Positions 42,487 to 51,310 of a DNA stretch of 64,000 nucleotides are shown here, in pieces. Made by a program: the position numbers and the translations under genes. The stretch spans positions 3,552,001 through 3,616,000 of the forward strand of contig CAWIPH010000002.1 of the NCBI GenBank assembly GCA_963837955.1, given 5' to 3'. Under the pieces are notes generated by a model. It saw only the letters and a list, made by a program, of their open reading frames with translations, was not told the DNA's origin and ran no database searches. The stretch's first letter is position 1; every line of letters starts with the position of its first letter. The DNA comes from an uncultured Verrucomicrobiae bacterium (lineage in GTDB: Bacteria; Verrucomicrobiota; Verrucomicrobiia; Chthoniobacterales; JAFAMB01).

Positions 42487-42554
42487 CTGAGGCTGGCTTG
42501 TCCGCCGTAGTTTGTGGGTTTTGCGGGAACGAAGGAGGGAGCATCAGGCTACGT
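42487..42554. repeat. REP-like element with inserted module (copy 2; inverted relative to 20975-21043)
   Basis: CTGAGGCTGG-[CTTGTCCGCCGTAG...ACGAAGGAGG]-GAGCATCAGGCTACGT. Confidence 0.75.
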
Positions 42555-42615
42555 TTTCGCCACTCCCAAGGTCTTTGCTCGTTGGCCAAAGAATGCTAGC
42601 TTCCGAACTCTTCGT

Positions 42616-45348
42616 ATGAATTACAAGGAGACACTCAACTTGCCCAAAACCGATTTCCCGATGAAGGCCAACCTCGTCGCGCGGGAACCGGAACTTTTGG
42701 CCAAATGGCAGAATACCGGTGTCTATCGTCAGATCCAAGACCGAAGGAAAGACGCACCCCTTTTCGTTCTCCACGACGGCCCGCCGTTTGCCAATGGCGA
42801 CGTTCATATGGGCACAGCCCTGAACAAGGTCCTGAAAGATCTTATCGTGAAGAGCCGCTCAATGTTGGGCCTCCGGGCACCTTTCGTACCGGGTTGGGAT
42901 TGTCACGGTCTGCCGATCGAATTCAAGGTCGTCAAAGAATCGCGCGGACTCTCCCCCCTCGAGGTACGGCAACGATCTGAACAATACGCTCGAAAGTATG
43001 TCGAGATTCAACGGAACCAGTTTCGCCGCCTGGGCGTTTTCGGCGACTGGGAAAATCCGTACCTGACTCTCGACCCGCACTACGAGGCGGTGATCCTACA
43101 GATTTTTGCGGCTATCGTCGAAAAGGGGTTGGTCTACCAAAGCAAGAAGCCGGTCTATTGGAGTACCGGCGCACAGACCGCTTTGGCCGAGGCTGAGGTT
43201 GAGTATAGAGATCGGCGCGATCCTTCGATCTATGTTGGCTTTCCAGTGGTCTCCGGAAAATATGCTGGCCGCTGCTCTCTCGCGATCTGGACGACGACTC
43301 CCTGGACACTGCCTGCCAATCTGGCCGTAGCGGTGCATCCAACATTCACTTATGTAGTGCAAGAGTTCGCCCATCCGGACCACGAAGCTCGCAGAACGCT
43401 TTTACTCGCAAAAGAGCGCATGGCTGCGTTCACAGAAGCTACTGGTTGGGTCCCTGAAGGAAAACCCATCCAGGAACTCCTGGGAAGCGAGTTGGAGGGA
43501 ATCTCTTATCGCCATCCATTCCTCGACCGCGATGGCGAAATTCTGACCGCGGAATTCGTGACACTCGATGCGGGCACCGGATGCGTTCATATCGCTCCAG
43601 GTCACGGTGAAGACGACTATCAACTCGGTTTGAAGCATGGCCTCCCAATCCTTTCACCGGTGGATGATCATGGACGGTTTACTTCGGAGGTTGGAATTAC
43701 CGAGTGGACGGGAAAGTACGTTTTCGACGCAAATCCCGACGTCATTAAGCTGCTGAAGGAACTGGGCGCGCTCCTGGGGGAACAGACCTTCGAGCACTCT
43801 TATCCGCATTGCTGGCGTTCAAAAACCCCGGTTGTGTTCCGTGCTGTCGAACAGTTTTTCATTCGGATTGATCAGATCAAGGATGACGCATTGGCGGCGG
43901 TCGAGCGGGTCAAATGGCTGCCGAGCTGGGGTCGCAATCGGATGTATTCTACCGTGGAATCCCGCCCGGACTGGTGTATTTCCCGGCAACGAAGTTGGGG
44001 AGTGCCTCTCCCTGCATTCTATCGAAAAGGTAAACCGATCCTCGACGCGGACTGGATCCGGCGAGTGGCGGAATTGGTCCGCGAGCGGGGTTCAAACGTT
44101 TGGTACGCATTGAGTGACGAGGCGATCGCTCAACAATTAGGATTGCCGCCCGGATTAACCAGACGCAATGATACACTCGACGTTTGGATCGACTCCGGTG
44201 TTAGCCATGAGGCGGTATTAAAAACGCGCCCCGAGCTACGCTGGCCTGCGGATGTCTACATCGAAGCGACAGATCAACACCGCGGTTGGTTCCAGTCCTC
44301 TCTGCTGACCAGCGTGGCAATTCATGGAGAAGCTCCGTATCGGGAAGTGATCACTCATTCCTTTGTCGTCGACATGGAAAGCAAGCAGAAGCTCTCCAAG
44401 TCGCAGCAAGGTGCCTACGCGAAACCGACCGAAGCGGAATACTACGTTAATAAGTATGGCGCGGATATCGTTCGCCTTTGGGTCGCCAGTGTCAATTACA
44501 CTGATGAAGTTCCCTTTGGCGAAAAGATGTTCGAGCAGTTGACGGATACCTACCGCCGCATCCGGAATACGCTCCGTATCTTGTTGGCAAATCTCAGCGA
44601 TTTCGATTCGGAGAAGCATCGGTCCAGCCGGCTCACTTTAGTGGATCGATGGTTATTGACGCGCCTGCAGGAATTGACGCGCCAGTGCCGAGAGGCATAC
44701 GAGCGATATGAGTTTCACAAAGTTTACCATGCTCTCAACCAATTCTGCGCCATCGAATTGAGCAGTTTGTACGTCGATATCACGAAGGACCGCATGTATT
44801 GCGACGCCCCGGATTCCCCTCGGCGACGGGCCACGCAAAGTGTCATGCATACGGCCTTTGATCATCTCGTTCGGTTGTTGGCCCCGATCCTGGCTTTTAC
44901 GGCTGAGGAGGCCTGGTCCCATTTTGGCCGAGCGGATTCGGTCCACCTCGAGATTTTGCCGACGAGCGACAGTAAACTGATCGATTCGCAAGCTGTGGCC
45001 GACGTCGAAGCGTTGCTGCGGGCCCGGGCAGTGGTCGCCCAAGCACTTGAATCTGCCCGCCAGCAAAAACAAATCGGCAACAATCTGGAGGCCCAGGTGA
45101 AATTGACTCTGCCGATCGGCGATCGCGTTCATCGGTTGGACCATGAAGAGGTCGAGGAATTCCTTATCTTGAGCCATCTCGAAATCGTGACTCGCGAGGG
45201 CGATCCCATGGCAACAGCGTCGAAAACCAAACGCGTCCGTTGCGAACGCTGCTGGCGTCATCGCCCAATGGTGAACATGATCCCGGCTCATCCCGGACTC
45301 TGTGACCGCTGTGCGGCCGTGATTGACCAGATGGCGATCGAAAAATGA
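42616..45348 (+). CDS. ileS: Isoleucyl-tRNA synthetase (type 1, C-terminal Zn finger)
   Basis: MNYKETLNLPKTDFPMKA, HDGPPFANG, GWDCHGLP, WTTTPWT, DWCISRQR and CERCW...CDRC; followed by lspA. Confidence 0.98.
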   Translation: MNYKETLNLPKTDFPMKANLVAREPELLAKWQNTGVYRQIQDRRKDAPLFVLHDGPPFANGDVHMGTALNKVLKDLIVKSRSMLGLRAPFVPGWDCHGLPIEFKVVKESRGLSPLEVRQRSEQYARKYVEIQRNQFRRLGVFGDWENPYLTLDPHYEAVILQIFAAIVEKGLVYQSKKPVYWSTGAQTALAEAEVEYRDRRDPSIYVGFPVVSGKYAGRCSLAIWTTTPWTLPANLAVAVHPTFTYVVQEFAHPDHEARRTLLLAKERMAAFTEATGWVPEGKPIQELLGSELEGISYRHPFLDRDGEILTAEFVTLDAGTGCVHIAPGHGEDDYQLGLKHGLPILSPVDDHGRFTSEVGITEWTGKYVFDANPDVIKLLKELGALLGEQTFEHSYPHCWRSKTPVVFRAVEQFFIRIDQIKDDALAAVERVKWLPSWGRNRMYSTVESRPDWCISRQRSWGVPLPAFYRKGKPILDADWIRRVAELVRERGSNVWYALSDEAIAQQLGLPPGLTRRNDTLDVWIDSGVSHEAVLKTRPELRWPADVYIEATDQHRGWFQSSLLTSVAIHGEAPYREVITHSFVVDMESKQKLSKSQQGAYAKPTEAEYYVNKYGADIVRLWVASVNYTDEVPFGEKMFEQLTDTYRRIRNTLRILLANLSDFDSEKHRSSRLTLVDRWLLTRLQELTRQCREAYERYEFHKVYHALNQFCAIELSSLYVDITKDRMYCDAPDSPRRRATQSVMHTAFDHLVRLLAPILAFTAEEAWSHFGRADSVHLEILPTSDSKLIDSQAVADVEALLRARAVVAQALESARQQKQIGNNLEAQVKLTLPIGDRVHRLDHEEVEEFLILSHLEIVTREGDPMATASKTKRVRCERCWRHRPMVNMIPAHPGLCDRCAAVIDQMAIEK

Positions 45349-45833
45349 AATTTTTGCTCCTGCTGAGCCCGCCGCTCATTTTGTTGGATCAGCTAACTAA
45401 ATGGTTTATCCAACAAGATATTCCCTACGGTGGCGAAGTGCCGATTATGCCGGGTTTTTTTAGCTTGGTACATGTCAGCAACACCGGAGCGGCATTTAGC
45501 TTACTCCAGGGAAATAATCTGTTTTTCATCATTCTGGCGCTATTGGCGCTTGCCGTTGTAATTTTTTTGCTCGTCCGCGATCAGTGGCAGACCGACCCCT
45601 CACGACGACTTCATTGGACGACCAAAATTTCTTTTGCCCTGCTAGCCGCAGGCATTCTCGGAAATCTCATCGATCGGTTATTCAAAGGGAGCGTGGTGGA
45701 CTTTCTCCACTTCTACATCCGCGATTACGCCTGGCCCTCCTTCAATGTGGCCGATAGCTGCATCTGTGTAGCCGCAGGCTTGCTTATTCTTACTTCATTT
45801 CGGAAGCAGCGACCTGTCGCTGAAAATTCGTAG
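45345..45833 (+). CDS. lspA: Lipoprotein signal peptidase II
   Basis: DQLTK, NTGAAF, GNLIDR, VVDF and FNVAD motifs. Confidence 0.96.
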   Translation: MKFLLLLSPPLILLDQLTKWFIQQDIPYGGEVPIMPGFFSLVHVSNTGAAFSLLQGNNLFFIILALLALAVVIFLLVRDQWQTDPSRRLHWTTKISFALLAAGILGNLIDRLFKGSVVDFLHFYIRDYAWPSFNVADSCICVAAGLLILTSFRKQRPVAENS

Positions 45834-45854
45834 GGTCGCCGCAGACCCACGATT

Positions 45855-46054
45855 GGTAGGGCGAAAGCCTGGGGCGGTCTCAGCCGCGCCGGCTTGAGCC
45901 GTTCGTTTTTCTACCCAAAAATGTCGTTTGGCTCACGTTCGTACCGTCTTGGGTCGTGGACGGCACGGATCGCTCCCGCACCGGCTCAAACCCGGCGCCA
46001 ACCAGACAACGCAGTATCGATTGATTTCCCGGGCGCCGAGGTTTTCGCCCTACC
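45855..46054. repeat. GTAG-type REP pair between convergent genes
   Basis: GGTAGGGCGAAAGCCT ... AGGTTTTCGCCCTACC; same ends as the units at 57287-57497. Confidence 0.7.
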
Positions 46055-46080
46055 AGCCAGGGGTGTCCTGCACGCAACAT

Positions 46081-47445
46081 TCAATTTCCCCCACCCTCCA
46101 CCGCTAATCGCTGCACCAAAGCTAGCGCTTCCGCCCGAGTTTGGATTTCCCCCTCGAGCTGGGCTGTCTGCACTCTCTCTAAAATCTGTCCGAATCGCGG
46201 TCCAGGAGAAAGGCCGAGCGCAATCAGATCATGACCATTCACCAGCGGCGGCGGTATCAATGGCTCTTTCTCGAATTCCTTTTCCTTCTGCAGAAGAAAC
46301 TGAAAGTTCTCTAGATCGCCGTGGCTGCTCAAGCAATCGACTCGGTGTAATTCAAGCTCCAGGCCAAAGTTTCCGCGAGCCATAAAACGACGAAGCTTCG
46401 CCGGACGCATCCTGGGGACATCTTTGAACATCATGTGGGTTCTAACCGCATCCGTTACAGTTTCGATTTCCTGACCAGAAAAGCGGAGCCGCTCCATCAC
46501 GGCCAAACTCATCGCGGCACCCACTTCGTCATGCCCATTGAACCGAATACGACCCTCTGCAGGATCGCACGTCTGGGTCGGCGGTTTCCCGATATCATGC
46601 AGCAACACCATTAAAGCCAGCAACCCGGGGGCATCCGATGGCAGAAATTCCAGCATCCTCCGGGTATGAACGAAAACGTCCCCTTCCGGATGAAATTGCG
46701 GAGGCTGTTCGCAGCCCTTTAGCGCAGCAACTTCCGGGAGGATCTGCTCGAGCAATCCGCTGGCATCCAAAAGATCGAATCCCCGCACGCGGTGAGGGTC
46801 AGCCAGGATTTTCATCAGTTCGTCCCGTATCCGTTCGGGACTTACTACGTGTATTTCTTTCGCATCCCGCCGAAGCGCACTCCAGGTTTCCGCTCCGATT
46901 TCAAATTGTAACGTCGCGGCAAAGCGCACCGCTCGAAGCATTCGGAGGCGATCTTCGGCAAAACGTAGCTGGGCATCCCCGATGGCTCGCACCAACTTTT
47001 TTTGCAAATCCTCACGCCCTCCGACGTAGTCGACTACTCTGTCGGCGATCGGGTCGTAGAACATCCCGTTGATCGTAAAGTCGCGTCTCTGGGCATCCTC
47101 CTCCGCGGAAGAGAAGGTCACCGTCTCGGGCCGTCGGCCATCCAAATAGGCACCATCAGATCGGAAAGTGGCGACTTCAAATTCCCACTCATTTTCCAGT
47201 ACTCGAATAACTCCAAACTTTGCGCCGACCGGAACGGTCCGAGCAAAAAGTTCCTGAACCCGCTCAGGACGGGCATCAGTCGCAACATCGATATCCTTTG
47301 GCCGAAAACCGAGGAGCGCGTCCCGAACGCAGCCGCCGGCAAAATAGGCTAGGTGACCGCGGTCGCGCAAACGTCGAACGACCGATGTCGCCACTTCCAC
47401 CAGCGGGGATGTGTCAAGCAGCTTCGGCAATCTCACTACCTCCAT
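46081..47445 (-). CDS. cca: CCA-adding tRNA nucleotidyltransferase / poly(A) polymerase family with HD domain (true start may be GTG 47400)
   Basis: GGCVRD, DIDVAT, RRDFTIN, EDRLRMLRAVRF, ERIRDE, FHPEGDV and HDIGK motifs. Confidence 0.9.
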   Translation of the reverse strand: MEVVRLPKLLDTSPLVEVATSVVRRLRDRGHLAYFAGGCVRDALLGFRPKDIDVATDARPERVQELFARTVPVGAKFGVIRVLENEWEFEVATFRSDGAYLDGRRPETVTFSSAEEDAQRRDFTINGMFYDPIADRVVDYVGGREDLQKKLVRAIGDAQLRFAEDRLRMLRAVRFAATLQFEIGAETWSALRRDAKEIHVVSPERIRDELMKILADPHRVRGFDLLDASGLLEQILPEVAALKGCEQPPQFHPEGDVFVHTRRMLEFLPSDAPGLLALMVLLHDIGKPPTQTCDPAEGRIRFNGHDEVGAAMSLAVMERLRFSGQEIETVTDAVRTHMMFKDVPRMRPAKLRRFMARGNFGLELELHRVDCLSSHGDLENFQFLLQKEKEFEKEPLIPPPLVNGHDLIALGLSPGPRFGQILERVQTAQLEGEIQTRAEALALVQRLAVEGGGN

Positions 47446-47572
47446 ACAGCAAACGCAAATCGGCGTTGGCTGCTTCGACGGCGGCCGACAACGGCAGTTC
47501 CAGTTCCATATAGATCTGAGTCAAGGCAACGAACCTCTCCTCTTCAGTTAGACGGATGTCTGGCATGTTCAT
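47414..47572 (-). CDS. Small acidic helical protein, 52 aa (not in ORF track)
   Basis: MNMPDIRLTEEERFVALTQIYMELELPLSAAVEAANADLRLLYGGSEIAEAA; SD AGGAGG 5 nt before ATG. Confidence 0.7.
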   Translation of the reverse strand: MNMPDIRLTEEERFVALTQIYMELELPLSAAVEAANADLRLLYGGSEIAEAA

Positions 47573-47608
47573 TTATTCCTCCTATTCTCCGCCGCCCCGC
47601 CGGTTCAC

Positions 47609-47644
47609 AAAAAAAAACCACCGCCGGGATTCAGCGGTGGGTTT
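47609..47644 (-). terminator. Intrinsic terminator (attenuator) upstream of the 52-aa gene and cca
   Basis: CCACCGCUG-AAUCC-CGGCGGUGG followed by U9. Confidence 0.85.
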
Positions 47645-47688
47645 GTCGAAAAGTCTCTAGTTTTCTAGTCGTTTCTGAGCTTACTCCC

Positions 47689-47790
47689 TCACCGCTTATC
47701 GGTAGCGTCGCCACGCGGCGCAACCGAAATACGCCACATCGTCCCCGAGGCGCATTTAAGGTTCTTGGTTTGGTGAGGAATCACAAGCAT
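47689..47790 (-). other. Candidate leader peptide region (33-aa ORF 47689-47790 or 19-aa ORF 47696-47755)
   Basis: Both stop codons fall in or at the edge of the antiterminator strand AGCGGUGAGG. Confidence 0.5.
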
Positions 47791-47798
47791 GGTCCACT

Positions 47799-47827
47799 TT
47801 TATAGAACAGACCGCAGCCGCCCGCAA
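47799..47827 (-). promoter_or_regulatory. Putative sigma70 promoter of the leader
   Basis: TTGCGG-17 nt-TATAAA, 8 nt before ATG 47790. Confidence 0.6.
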
Positions 47828-47997
47828 TAAAAAACTTTTCCAATTGCTGTTATAAGATTTTTTCTCACAGAAAACCAGGCTGGAATAATGAGGTTGCCGT
47901 CGGGCAGAGTCCGACGTAGCATCGGAACATTGTTTAAAGGTCTTCGAATTGCCTGGAAGTGCGCGGTGTCGCTACTTCGACTTCCAGACCGGACCCT

Positions 47998-48210
47998 ATG
48001 GAACCCAAGCCCGCAGCTGATTTTGCGAACAGTGGGAAGCGAACTACCAGCGTGCGCCTGGAGCATCTGGAACGCCTCGAGACCGTCGTTCGTGAATTCG
48101 GGTTCAAAGACCGGAGCCACTTTTTTCAGCTCTGCACGGATGCACTTCTGCGCGCTCATCACAGCGGACAACGCCTAGACTGGCCGCCGCGTTTCGTGAC
48201 TCGCGATTAG
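47998..48210 (+). CDS. Small ribbon-helix-helix-like protein, 70 aa
   Basis: TTSVRL strand, then EHLERLETVVREFG and DRSHFFQLC helices. Confidence 0.55.
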   Translation: MEPKPAADFANSGKRTTSVRLEHLERLETVVREFGFKDRSHFFQLCTDALLRAHHSGQRLDWPPRFVTRD

Positions 48211-48322
48211 TGCGGCGTTGCCTGATCCCGCCGTCGCTATGCGCGGCCTTATCCCTTGGCGGGCGCGCCGTAGCACGAAGGTTGCGTCCTGGCTAAGGCC
48301 AAAACGATGGCTTCGGCCACAA

Positions 48323-48426
48323 CGATTGTGAAAGGTGAGAAGTGATTGGTGAATGGTGGGAGATCTCTGCCGAGAATTTGCCGATAGGAATCCACCACCC
48401 TATCACCGATCACCAACGACACTCTC
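48323..48426. repeat. Dispersed repeat with conserved core and heptamer-like inverted flanks (copy 2)
   Basis: Core GAGATCTCTGCCGAGAATTTGCCGATAGGAATCCACC; left flank resembles the reverse complement of the right flank of copy 1. Confidence 0.7.
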
Positions 48427-48452
48427 TTGACGAGGGTTTGGATTGGGCCACG

Positions 48453-49742
48453 ATGACCCCACCTATGGAGAGAGCCGCACTTTGTTCGCTACCATTTGGA
48501 CCACACCGCCCAGCCGCAAAATTCGCCTCGTTGCTTTTCGCCCCGATATTCATTTTTTGTTCCTTCGCCCAAGCACAAGATCAATCAGGTAAAGCCCCCG
48601 AAGATGACGAATGGGCCGCAACCTGGGGTTGCGCCCCGGCGTTTCCCATCGGACAGGAGCTGGCCAATCAGACGCTTCGCCAGTTTGTCAGAATTAGCGT
48701 AGGAGGCGAACGTGTGCGGATCCGCTTGTCCAATGAAACCGGGACGCAGCCGTTAGTCATTGGAGCGGCACATTTGGCTATTGCTGGGCCGGAGAAGGGA
48801 AGTATCGATCCTTCATCGGATCATGTGCTGACTTTCAACGGTAGCCCAACGATCACCGTACCTCCGGGAGCGCCGGTGCTCAGCGATCCGCTGGATTTCG
48901 AAGTCCGGCCCCTTACGATGCTCGCAGTCAGTCTCTACATAACCCGTGATACGGGCGGCTCGGTGATTCATCCGCTGGGTGGTGCGACGGCTTATCTTTC
49001 CCAATCTGGCGATCAGAGTGGCGCAACGACAATCGCCGACGCTACGACAGTAACCGAACGATATTTTCTGACCCGAATCGAAGTGAACTCACCCAACAAT
49101 GCTGGAACGATCGTCGCCTTAGGCGATTCGATTACTGACGGACGCGGATCGACAGTGGATGCTAACCGGCGCTGGCCCGATCGGTTAGCCGAACGTTTGC
49201 ATGAGCAGGGTCAAGAGCTCGGCGTGGTGAACGCAGGTATCGCCGGGAATCGAATATTGCATGATCTTCCGGAAATGATTTGTGGTCCCAGCAGTCTTTC
49301 GCGCTTCGACCGAGATGTGTTAAGCGTACCGGCCGTAAAATTTGTGATCGTTCTTCAAGGAGTGACTGACATCGGCCATCCCGTGGCCAATGCCCTTCCC
49401 GAACAAGCGGTCAGCTCAGAACAGGTTATCGGCGGCCTAAAACAATTGATTGCTCGCGCACGTGCGCGCCACCTCAAGATTTTTGGAGCCACCCTCCTGC
49501 CAGAGGAGGGTGATGTCTTGCACAACGAGGAAGGTGAAGCGAAACGCAAAGCGGTAAATGAATGGATCCGCACTAGTAAGGCTTTTGATGGTGTCATTGA
49601 CTTCGAAGCTGCGGTCCGCGACCCGGATCATCCGGCACGACTCCGTGCTGAATACGATTCGGGTGATCACGGACATCTCAACGACGCCGGCTATCGAGCG
49701 ATGGCGGATTCCATCGATCTGAAGTTGTTTGCCAAACCGTAG
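48453..49742 (+). CDS. Secreted SGNH/GDSL hydrolase
   Basis: TLRQFVRIS N-domain; GDSITDG, NAGIAGN and DHGH motifs; start 48453 or 48465. Confidence 0.9.
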   Translation: MTPPMERAALCSLPFGPHRPAAKFASLLFAPIFIFCSFAQAQDQSGKAPEDDEWAATWGCAPAFPIGQELANQTLRQFVRISVGGERVRIRLSNETGTQPLVIGAAHLAIAGPEKGSIDPSSDHVLTFNGSPTITVPPGAPVLSDPLDFEVRPLTMLAVSLYITRDTGGSVIHPLGGATAYLSQSGDQSGATTIADATTVTERYFLTRIEVNSPNNAGTIVALGDSITDGRGSTVDANRRWPDRLAERLHEQGQELGVVNAGIAGNRILHDLPEMICGPSSLSRFDRDVLSVPAVKFVIVLQGVTDIGHPVANALPEQAVSSEQVIGGLKQLIARARARHLKIFGATLLPEEGDVLHNEEGEAKRKAVNEWIRTSKAFDGVIDFEAAVRDPDHPARLRAEYDSGDHGHLNDAGYRAMADSIDLKLFAKP

Positions 49743-49922
49743 TCCGGATCCTTCGAGCGCTCGACCATAAGCGCACCGAATTGCCGAGGCTGGAGCATCC
49801 CCATTACCATTGCGCGTAGTCCAGATCCTTGGGCTCCGAATCGAGATCTTGTGTTTTTCGACCCGGTCACTATTTTACGGTTCCTATCGACCCAGCCGTC
49901 GAGGGGTACCAATTGCCCTTAA

Positions 49923-49996
49923 GCGCTCTTAGCTCAGATGGATAGAGCAAGCGATTTCTAATCGCTCGGTCACAGGTTCGAGTCCTGTAGAGCGCG
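49923..49996 (+). tRNA. tRNA-Arg(TCT), CCA not encoded
   Basis: Acceptor GCGCTCT/AGAGCGC, D arm GCTC/GAGC, anticodon arm AGCGA-TTTCTAA-TCGCT, T arm ACAGG-TTCGAGT-CCTGT. Confidence 0.96.
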
Positions 49997-50215
49997 CTTG
50001 TATATGTGGTGGCATATAATCTTCCCCTTAGTCCAAGTCTTGGCGTCAGATCCCAATTCTCTAATCCGAAAACTTGTCGTCTTTGCGTGAGATTTCGGTC
50101 GTCTTTGCTTGATTGTATTCCGTGTTCTGATTCCGCCGAGCAGGCGTGTCCGACGAAGCATCCACCAGGTGGTGATACGATTTTTGACTAACTTCGCGAA
50201 GTCGGAAGCTCAGCC

Positions 50216-51310
50216 CTACCGTATACTCTCGTCGGTATTCGGATCGAACAGGTGAATTAACTCGCTCGCTACGGTGAGCGTTAGCTTCTCGCCGGCTACC
50301 CGTCCCCACTGTTCGTTGATCTGCGCGATGATCTTTTTCTCTTCGCCGATGTTGATTTGGAGGATTGAGGTCGCTCCTTGGGGCTCGACTACCTCGACGA
50401 TGCCTTTGATGACGTTCTTGGTCGCGCTGTCAGGGTTTCTCTCGATCAACAGGTGTTCCGGACGAACTCCCACCCAGACATCTTTGATCCCTTTCCGGGT
50501 CGCAGCAGCAGCGCGATCCTTTGATAACAGTAAGCGGAAATTTTCTCCGGCGGAAACCGATCCATCCGCTGCAACCTGCCCACGCAAAAAATTCATCGAT
50601 GGGCTGCCAATGAAACCCGCCACATACCGGTTAATCGGCACATTGTACAGATCCTTGGGCGTTCCAACCTGCTGGACTAATCCTTTGGACATGACCACGA
50701 TCCGGTCACCCATGCTCAACGCCTCAACCTGGTCGTGCGTGACGTAAAATGTCGTTACGCCCAGACGCCGTTGGAGCTTAATGATCTCGGCCCGCATCTC
50801 GACCCGAAGCTTGGCGTCTATGTTAGATAACGGTTCGTCCATCAAGAAAACCTTTGGCTCTCGCACGATCGCACGCCCAAGCGCCACTCGCTGACGTTCA
50901 CCTCCGGATAGCTCCTTGGGTTTGCGCTCAAGCAAATGCTCGATACCCAGGATTTTTGCCGCCGAATGAACTCGTTCGGCCACACGCTCTTTGGGAAACT
51001 TCCGTAACCGCAGGCCGAAAGACATGTTGCCGAATACGTTCATATGCGGAAACAGAGCGTAGTTCTGGAAAACCATGGCGACGTCGCGTTCTCGCGGGAT
51101 CATTCCGACAACGTTCTTTCCGCCAATCTTGATCTCGCCACCGGTTACTGTCTCCAGACCAGCGATCATCCGCATCGTCGTGGTCTTGCCGCATCCGGAA
51201 GGTCCGACCAGGACGACGAATTCGCCCTCGGTGGTGGTGAGATTGAAATCCTGAACGGCGAGAACTTCGCCGTACCGCTTCATCACTTTAGATAACTCGA
51301 CTATAGCCAC
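50216..51310 (-). CDS. Carbohydrate ABC transporter ATP-binding protein (MalK/UgpC-like)
   Basis: GPSGCGKT, LSGGERQR and DEPLSN motifs; TOBE-like C-terminus. Confidence 0.95.
   Translation of the reverse strand: MAIVELSKVMKRYGEVLAVQDFNLTTTEGEFVVLVGPSGCGKTTTMRMIAGLETVTGGEIKIGGKNVVGMIPRERDVAMVFQNYALFPHMNVFGNMSFGLRLRKFPKERVAERVHSAAKILGIEHLLERKPKELSGGERQRVALGRAIVREPKVFLMDEPLSNIDAKLRVEMRAEIIKLQRRLGVTTFYVTHDQVEALSMGDRIVVMSKGLVQQVGTPKDLYNVPINRYVAGFIGSPSMNFLRGQVAADGSVSAGENFRLLLSKDRAAAATRKGIKDVWVGVRPEHLLIERNPDSATKNVIKGIVEVVEPQGATSILQINIGEEKKIIAQINEQWGRVAGEKLTLTVASELIHLFDPNTDESIR

Follow-up and report, generated by a model that had tools for sequence, protein, structure and literature searches.

How is the gene for the CCA-adding enzyme controlled in a bacterium in which it lies behind a structured leader and an intrinsic transcription terminator? 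The question is raised by a locus in a 64,000-nt stretch of the genome of an uncultured Verrucomicrobiae bacterium (assembly GCA_963837955.1, contig CAWIPH010000002.1, positions 3,552,001 to 3,616,000), referred to here as the window. On its minus strand, promoter-like hexamers, a leader with a short open reading frame (ORF) and a terminator precede a gene for a 52-aa protein (the small ORF), which runs into cca. On balance, we lean towards a ribosome-dependent attenuator, probably on a leaderless transcript, that precedes the translationally coupled 52-aa gene and cca and raises cca when translation slows. Comparison of related genomes shows three alternative pairings in the leader RNA, a conserved open frame, coupling of the small ORF to cca, and restriction of the arrangement to one family. 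The features of the locus in the window, in the order in which they would be transcribed, are:

47822..47827, minus strand: -35-like hexamer TTGCGG, read from the sequence, with a 17-nt spacer to TATAAA
47799..47804, minus strand: -10-like hexamer TATAAA, read from the sequence, 8 nt upstream of the leader ATG
47689..47790, minus strand: leader ORF of 33 codons plus UGA, with its ATG at 47790; product MLVIPHQTKNLKCASGTMWRISVAPRGDATDKR
47772..47788, minus strand: 5' strand of P1, the predicted anti-antiterminator helix (leader nt 3-19, codons 1-7), from minimum-energy folds
47780-47772, minus strand: segment 1, UUCCUCACC, which pairs with GGUGAGGGA at 47693-47685 in the minimum-energy fold
47728..47756, minus strand: inner hairpin a, from folds and alignments
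47699..47727, minus strand: inner hairpin b, from folds and alignments
47679..47697, minus strand: segment 2, made up of the P1 3' strand (47693-47679) and the overlapping antiterminator strand AAGCGGUGAGGG (47697-47686)
47691-47689, minus strand: leader stop codon UGA, inside segment 2
47618..47643, minus strand: intrinsic terminator, with its stem-loop at 47640-47618; the 5' arm with its flank, ACCCACCGCUG (47643-47633), is the antiterminator partner
47609..47617, minus strand: U9 tract, read from the sequence
47578..47583, minus strand: AGGAGG, ribosome-binding site of the small ORF, 5 nt ahead of it, read from the sequence
47414..47572, minus strand: gene for the 52-aa acidic protein, predicted to be a helical hairpin, from the ORF, its conservation and the predicted structure
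46081..47445, minus strand: cca, predicted class II tRNA nucleotidyltransferase with an HD domain; start at ATG 47445, or at TTG 47430 after GGAGG at 47443-47439

The promoter hexamers, the 1:2, 2:3 and 3:4 pairings, the terminator with its 9-bp stem and U9 tract, the AGGAGG-led 52-aa ORF and cca had been reported in an initial annotation of this DNA, and all lie where it placed them. In the minimum-energy fold of the window leader, P1 is formed by leader nt 3-7 and 11-19 paired with nt 98-112 (GGUGAGGGA..UAAGC) and encloses the two hairpins. The competing duplex, AAGCGGUGAGGG:ACCCACCGCUG, has an energy of -16.4 kcal/mol, a value equalled by 2 of 200 dinucleotide shuffles. The terminator stem comprises 9 pairs, 7 of them G-C, is followed by T9, and is separated from the small ORF by 36 nt. 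The fold of the 201-nt leader is only mildly unusual for a single sequence (z = -2.17 relative to shuffled sequences, 7 of 200 of which fold as well), and thus the weight rests on conservation in relatives. A promoter scan did not list TTGCGG-17-TATAAA, because the -35 hexamer agrees with the consensus at 3 of 6 bases.

Among the genera of the family the window genus is labelled g1, and leader loci are identified by L-numbers. A DNA search of 41 relatives recovered the whole leader in four other genomes of the genus, at 77-84% identity, and the terminator region also in two further genera. The 52-aa protein is encoded in 34 of 43 family genomes and in 11/11 genera. We identified the small ORF in all 30 listed loci, with cca next to it in all except L032, which ends too soon. 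Upstream sequence is available for 29 of the 30 (the thirtieth is cut by a contig end 94 nt upstream), and leader and terminator are present in 29/29 of these; two further loci were added later, giving 31 loci for counts of the leader ORF. A profile of the small protein matched 34 of 39 family genomes, 4 of 261 genomes of other families of the order (through the central helices only), and, at E up to 1e-6, 0 of 400 genomes drawn from elsewhere in the phylum. In five other families of the order, each represented by one complete genome, cca is accompanied by neither the small ORF nor the leader, and the leader covariance model described below has no match upstream of cca in those five families. 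Thus, we conclude from comparative sequence data that the leader element is an innovation of one Chthoniobacterales family. A regulon, with more copies elsewhere in the genome, was ruled out: no second copy of the terminator-type pattern was found in the genome, in which the motif is single-copy.

An intrinsic terminator lies between the leader and the downstream genes in every one of the 29 loci for which upstream sequence is available. The terminator arm has its best partner in the leader at nt 89-117 in 28 of these 29, with energies of -12 to -20 kcal/mol, and in 13 of the 29 the antiterminator duplex is equalled by at most 5 of 200 dinucleotide shuffles. The registers and sequences that face the same arm vary by genus (AGCGGUG, UCAGCGG...GGGU, AGUGGUGGGUU and GGCGGU.GGG). 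In the three loci in which the arm has CUGC for CCGC, segment 2 of the leader has GCAG for GCGG; the 3' arm of the terminator is also changed in L024 and L025, and L028 keeps the G, which gives a U-G pair. Alignment of all 28 leaders with MAFFT and RNAalifold recovered the terminator only, and we therefore used a subgroup alignment, A5 (11 sequences from three genera, with the structure derived from one of its own rows), together with a covariance model built from it. The 7-bp core of the antiterminator is 97% paired in A5, where GC is replaced by AU in three sequences with the matching change in the arm. Across genera, in the covariance-model alignment, 70.6% of the cells of this core are paired, compared with 22-53% in slid controls.

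The predicted OFF structure, which consists of the 5' end paired with segment 2, the two inner hairpins and the terminator, has 86.2% of its cells paired in A5 (39-51% when slid) and two-sided changes at 14 pairs (4-7 when slid), and its covariation score was reached by 0 of 500 shuffles. Hairpin b accounts for two-sided changes at 4 of its 9 pairs in A5, and the pairing of hairpin a is maintained by differing sequences in different genera. The covariance model gave full-length matches beginning exactly at the ATG in seven genera outside the training set. Scores were 47 bits for g10, 44 bits for the window (47790-47610, E 7.5e-7), 41 for g5 and 39 for g3, and 16-23 bits for g9, g7 and g8. In the untrained g1 rows, 31 of 39 cells of P1 are paired (0.43 when slid), 32 of 36 cells of hairpin a (0.50 when slid) and 20 of 24 cells of hairpin b (0.30 when slid); P2 is not conserved in the untrained rows of this alignment. 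P1 is supported in g1, g3, g4, g6, g8 and g11. The layout of terminator, antiterminator and anti-antiterminator that had been proposed from the window alone is thus backed by conservation and covariation in the loci of the family.

A structured, conserved RNA flanked by promoter-like hexamers and a strong terminator could also be a small RNA gene in its own right, ~180 nt long, in which case incidental read-through would account for expression of the small ORF and cca. Attenuator-derived RNAs are able to act in trans in other bacteria, as Sinorhizobium rnTrpL reportedly does (PMC6614838). However, a covarying competition between segment 2 and the terminator arm would be purposeless in a plain small RNA, and the synteny with the small ORF and cca holds in every one of the 30 listed loci. 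Given also that the motif occurs only once in the genome and that no separate promoter is seen for the essential cca gene, we regard this explanation as highly improbable.

In the leader, the inner helices differ in number and size between genera, as do junctions and loops, most of all in g8 and g5. In the sensor domain, representatives of seven genera agree at 4 of 78 paired columns, including the G of the start codon, and at 2 of 29 well-occupied unpaired columns, both also in the start codon (A and U). The confinement of invariant unpaired bases to the start codon argues against a ligand pocket and for translation. These patterns bear directly on a riboswitch or other RNA-only sensor, in which a metabolite (e.g., a nucleotide) or a tRNA bound at the three-way junction would choose between P1 with the terminator and the antiterminator. 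A P1 helix that closes two hairpins, followed by an antiterminator/terminator platform, is the typical layout of a transcriptional riboswitch, and sensing of tRNA would be functionally apt for cca. Yet known aptamers do not show such variation of junctions, loops and inner helices inside a single family, a riboswitch would leave the conservation of the open frame (described below) unexplained, and an Rfam scan of 45000-50500 at E up to 10 returned a tRNA and chance hits, with no family, not even the T-box, matching the leader. We therefore consider an RNA-only sensor quite unlikely. The terminator hairpin was also considered as a T-arm or minihelix mimic for Cca, and this was ruled out by variation of its loop between genera.

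The leader ORF is present in 31/31 loci and has 33-41 codons. Its start codon is ATG in 28 loci and GTG in one, 138-150 nt ahead of the terminator arm; in the two loci added later, the ORF starts with ATG in one and GTG in the other and has 38 codons in both. Within the first 99 nt, the frame of the ORF is open in 29/29 loci, whereas the other two frames are open in 9/29 and 5/29. In dinucleotide shuffles of one sequence per genus the frame stays open with a probability of 0.13-0.50, values that are not to be multiplied across genera. The leader sequences are separated by many substitutions and indels, and still the frame is open. The conserved GCGGUGAGG is read CGG-UGA in g1 but GCG-GUG-AGG in g3, g7 and g10, so that the frame is not inherited at this point, yet the ORF stays open. 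In all 29 loci the leader stop lies either inside segment 2 (g1 and g8) or 6-16 nt after it (other genera). The ORF thus extends over the P1 5' strand, which takes up codons 1-7 in the window and 1-9 in g4, and over segment 2, with the stop in or after segment 2, which is the geometry of a ribosome-dependent attenuator.

Motifs resembling a Shine-Dalgarno (SD) sequence at -16 to -5 were found in 0 of 31 loci. In g1, g3, g5, g7, g8, g9 and g10, a sequence of the form TTGnnn-16/17-TAnnnN ends 7-8 nt ahead of the start codon (the strict -10 pattern TAnnnT matched 10 of 31 loci). The lack of an SD motif and the -10-like hexamer 7-8 nt before the start together point to an mRNA that is probably leaderless or nearly so.

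The encoded peptide itself is not under amino-acid selection. Entropies at the three codon positions of the leader ORF are 0.63/0.69/0.585, which gives no codon periodicity, and the ratio of synonymous to non-synonymous changes (138/329) resembles those of the off frames (129/330 and 171/308). No amino-acid run is common to the leader peptides of the 11 genera. A functional small protein encoded by the leader was therefore rejected, since the 52-aa ORF is periodic in the same genomes. Two candidate leader peptides had been put forward initially. The first stands, being open in 31/31 loci; the second, MRLGDDVAYFGCAAWRRYR, was rejected because it is confined to the genus, is shortened to 15 aa in one of five genomes, and lies in a frame that is open in 5 of 29 loci. 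The suggestion that an aromatic/Arg-rich composition is the signal fails as well, in that we see no amino-acid selection on the leader peptide. Homologous loci, which the initial annotation had named as the place to look for conserved frames and pairings, retain the first frame throughout and support the three pairings, P1 less uniformly than the others. The leader RNA is thus selected for its structure, a start codon at the 5' end and an open frame, and not for a peptide or a ligand pocket.

The product of cca is a predicted CCA-adding enzyme of class II tRNA nucleotidyltransferase type. It has a PolyA_pol head domain (PF01743, 6.7e-39), an RNA-binding domain (PF12627, 1.9e-18) and an HD domain (3.3e-07), and its best NCBIfam matches are models of CCA tRNA nucleotidyltransferases, with scores under the equivalog cut-offs. 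This is the sole PF01743 (PolyA_pol family) gene of the genome. ARAGORN identified 49 tRNA genes, 34 of which lack an encoded CCA, including those for Phe, Trp, Cys, His and Asp, both for Lys, and most for Leu, Arg and Gly. One tRNA gene without encoded CCA, tRNA-Arg(TCT), lies in the window at 49923-49996 on the plus strand (67 bits to the Rfam tRNA model). Most bacteria rely on Cca to finish some or all tRNAs. With 34 of 49 tRNA genes lacking CCA, Cca is needed here for maturation and not for repair alone, so that the initial description of cca as a tRNA 3'-end repair enzyme was too narrow.

We predict that the small ORF and cca form an operon, as was initially proposed. There is neither room nor a signal for a promoter after the terminator, and the promoter scan found no promoter-like site between the terminator and cca on the minus strand; a promoter of its own for cca, which would have spoken against control by the leader, was thus not found. 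The cca start chosen by a script overlaps the stop of the small ORF by 1 or 4 nt in 24 of the 28 loci with a complete cca. Overlap of stop and start is the classical arrangement for translational coupling. The two genes overlap in the window as well, and in g1 the stop of the small ORF follows the cca start at a distance of 17 or 32 nt, with GGAGG ahead of the TTG.

From these patterns we infer where the transcript starts, that the leader is translated, which way the switch works and what it senses, as follows. The most likely transcription start is the leader AUG itself or a position a few bases away from it. The first ~20-27 nt of the RNA (codons 1-9) would pair with segment 2 (nt ~90-112) and close the domain with its two hairpins; segment 2 could alternatively pair with the 5' arm of the terminator. 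With no ribosome on the leader, the 5' end would hold segment 2 and the terminator would form. A fast ribosome that reaches the stop codon would melt or cover segment 2, and the terminator would again form. A ribosome that is slow on the first codons would mask the 5' strand of P1, and segment 2 could then pair with the terminator arm, which would permit read-through into the small ORF and cca. As the leaders share no codon run and the output is cca, on which 34 of 49 tRNAs depend, the natural signal would be the general speed of early elongation, which probably reports the supply of chargeable CCA-ended tRNA. Low Cca would slow early elongation and so increase transcription of cca, a negative, homeostatic feedback. 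Such feedback on tRNA status is plausible because cca is the sole gene of its kind and most tRNA genes need its product. In P. aeruginosa, deletion of cca increases ribosome association or stalling on the leader ORF PA5471.1 and induces the attenuated gene armZ, with codons 3 and 4 implicated (PMC13041342). This response to loss of cca is an independent precedent for the input side of the proposed switch.

The same pairings could be read in the opposite direction: any translation of the leader would open P1 and favour the antiterminator, so that cca would be on only with active ribosomes, as a feed-forward to growth, and an untranslated leader would terminate. For an essential gene behind a strong terminator, needed by so many tRNAs without encoded CCA, a default ON state in growth would be convenient, and segment 2 stays accessible in g5 and g10 when a ribosome reaches the stop codon. 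However, the ORF traverses segment 2 in 29/29 loci instead of ending before it, and a terminating ribosome would sit on segment 2 in g1, g3, g7, g8 and g9. By reasoning alone, low Cca would also lower cca further, a positive feedback that leads to collapse. We give this opposite logic little credence.

Several observations nevertheless weigh against an attenuator that responds to slow translation. The covariance-model alignment (A8), from which pair counts were taken, was fitted to the structure, and the structure used for A5 was itself derived from a single row of A5; the counts from both are thus biased towards the structure. P1 individually beats shuffles in 6 of 29 loci only, is weak in g10 (7 of 13 cells) and is replaced in g5, where the minimum-energy fold pairs segment 2 with the strand just upstream instead; thus, the anti-antiterminator is not uniform. 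The genera are related, and the openness statistics of the leader frame therefore overstate independence. The -10 element is unclear in g4, g6 and g11, which make up 16 of the 31 loci. With 15-16 nt from segment 2 to the downstream stop codon in g5 and g10, a terminating ribosome would leave segment 2 uncovered there, a misfit with the simple masking picture. Finally, an essential cca gene behind a strong terminator requires substantial basal read-through.

The protein encoded between the terminator and cca had been called an orphan, a description that no longer applies given its presence in most family genomes and its evident constraint. Entropies at the three codon positions of the 52-aa ORF are 0.47/0.33/0.89 in the genomes used for the leader, and synonymous and non-synonymous changes number 376/211, compared with 130/473 and 101/555 in the other frames. 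The protein is thus, by the substitution pattern, under purifying selection, and the ORF, whose conservation the initial annotation had treated as decisive, is conserved family-wide. The protein is acidic (10 D/E and 3 K/R), and a confident structure prediction (mean pLDDT 83) gives a helix-turn-helix hairpin, with helices at 10-23 and 28-44 and a loose tail. Public data hold 283 clusters of relatives, which are hypothetical where named, bar two stray source labels, and have no Pfam domain. No family was found for it in Pfam or NCBIfam, no usable match in the ESM Atlas, and no Foldseek match against the PDB at E up to 0.001.

The co-occurrence of leader and small protein in this family only, with neither next to cca in the five other families, raises protein autoregulation: Cca, the 52-aa protein or their complex, when in excess, would stabilise the helix between the 5' end and segment 2 and so cause termination, with the leader ORF incidental or auxiliary. 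Proteins recognise targets such as a closed three-way domain whose helices covary. However, a strongly acidic, plain helical hairpin is an unlikely RNA binder, and with no conserved unpaired bases other than the start codon, and terminator loops that differ between genera, no obvious recognition site for a protein or tRNA mimic is apparent. An open ORF in 31/31 loci would also go unexplained, and we consider autoregulation by these proteins unlikely. More speculatively, and with the attenuator again taken as the basis, the locus may be a homeostat of tRNA 3'-end maturation, in which a leaderless mini-ORF acts as a codon-unspecific speedometer that sets the level of the sole cca, and the 52-aa protein, made in a fixed ratio to Cca by way of the overlapping stop and start, is a new partner or modulator of the enzyme. 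This fuller picture is tentative, and we would sooner doubt it than adopt it as a whole.

Elsewhere, in ORF-poor surroundings, two ORFs of 103 aa and 88 aa carry the central helices of the 52-aa protein (ALTQIYLELxLPLxxAxxAAxADL) at their ends:

G000 C2:4173332-4173436 (L040 1015-1326, minus strand): extra copy of the central helices
G000 C2:2634469-2634561 (L041 1073-1339, minus strand): extra copy of the central helices

The two copies share DNA similarity over ~150 nt, upstream block included. Between one and seven additional copies occur in relatives; in-frame stops interrupt some of these, and a 465-aa frame of another family contains one. These copies may represent a dispersed family of small genes or an element.

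Other features surround the leader in the window. An A/T-rich block at 47824-47850 (minus strand), just upstream of and overlapping the -35 hexamer, is identical in all five genomes of the genus and includes GCAAT (47847-47843) ... ATTGC (47828-47824) as an inverted repeat. The block may serve as an UP element or an operator. A 123-aa ORF at 47800-48171 (minus strand) overlaps the leader promoter, has no Pfam match, and lies in a region that is not conserved in genome G001 of the genus. By these signs it is probably not a gene, which leaves a divergent intergenic region of ~550 nt from the leader to a GDSL-lipase-like gene at 48342-49742. The spacer at 47648-47675 (minus strand) and its equivalents (30-45 nt, from leader stop to terminator) are A-rich in relatives too; a motif R-A-C/U-U-U-U..GA.AAACCC is kept across genera, and its A run is able to pair with the U tract of the terminator. 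Beyond the 3' end of cca, at 42514-45833 on the plus strand, ileS (944 aa) and lspA (Peptidase_A8) share a 4-nt overlap and run towards cca. A different family of the order has lspA immediately upstream of cca in the same orientation.

In the literature searched, which leaves most subscription journals outside its coverage, we found no attenuator or riboswitch on cca, no leader peptides in Verrucomicrobia, and no paper on control of the expression of a bacterial cca gene. If the proposed reading is true, the leader would be the first natural cis-regulatory element for cca, and a leader-peptide attenuator that senses the general speed of translation, not one amino acid. It would also place leaderless regulatory ORFs outside Actinobacteria, in the poorly studied Verrucomicrobiota. 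A system of ~180 nt with three predicted pairings and one start codon offers a testable model for how tRNA maturation may be matched to demand. The 52-aa protein, unnamed despite its 283 clusters, is a candidate partner of Cca, and the RNA motif, absent from Rfam, could be added there.

The classical amino-acid attenuators (trpL, hisL, pheL, thrL, leuL and ilvL) share with the cca leader a short ORF over segment 1, the mutually exclusive 1:2, 2:3 and 3:4 pairings, a terminator, and a leader stop at or near segment 2. Unlike them, the cca leader lacks a run of cognate codons, which is what defines such attenuators, and its operon makes no amino acid but encodes a tRNA-maturation enzyme. It also lacks an SD motif, starts 7-8 nt after a -10-like hexamer in most genera, carries two extra hairpins between segments 1 and 2, and has no Rfam match.

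The likeness to T-box riboswitches is one of function only, in that a leader with terminator and antiterminator reports tRNA status to a gene of the tRNA-charging pathway. The likely sensor in the cca leader is a translated ORF, not direct binding of tRNA; there is no RF00230 match at E up to 10, and no specifier loop or T-box sequence is seen by eye in the alignments. In B. subtilis rplJL, a translation-apparatus gene is likewise reported to be under the control of alternative leader structures and an intrinsic terminator (PMC4538822). The effector described there is the encoded protein complex L10(L12)4, which binds the leader, whereas no such site is evident in the cca leader.

Closer parallels are found among leaders that respond to the state of translation. 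PA5471.1, upstream of armZ, is likewise a leader ORF without a run of cognate codons in which early stalling relieves attenuation (PMC13041342). Its output, as described there, is a regulator of an efflux pump, with Cca an accidental input, whereas the output here is cca itself, which would close the loop; the two leaders have no sequence similarity. The polycysteine leaderless ORFs of mycobacteria are reported to be regulatory mini-ORFs that open the transcript at its 5' end and lack a ribosome-binding site (bioRxiv 10.1101/834739), a position that we propose for the cca leader ORF as well. These actinobacterial ORFs belong to another phylum and reportedly sense one amino acid by a codon run and act on the expression of operonic genes; the cca leader, in Verrucomicrobiota, has no codon run and carries an intrinsic terminator and an antiterminator. 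By analogy, the cca leader thus seems closest in its logic to the translation-stress leader peptides, and in its mode of initiation to the leaderless regulatory ORFs of Actinobacteria.

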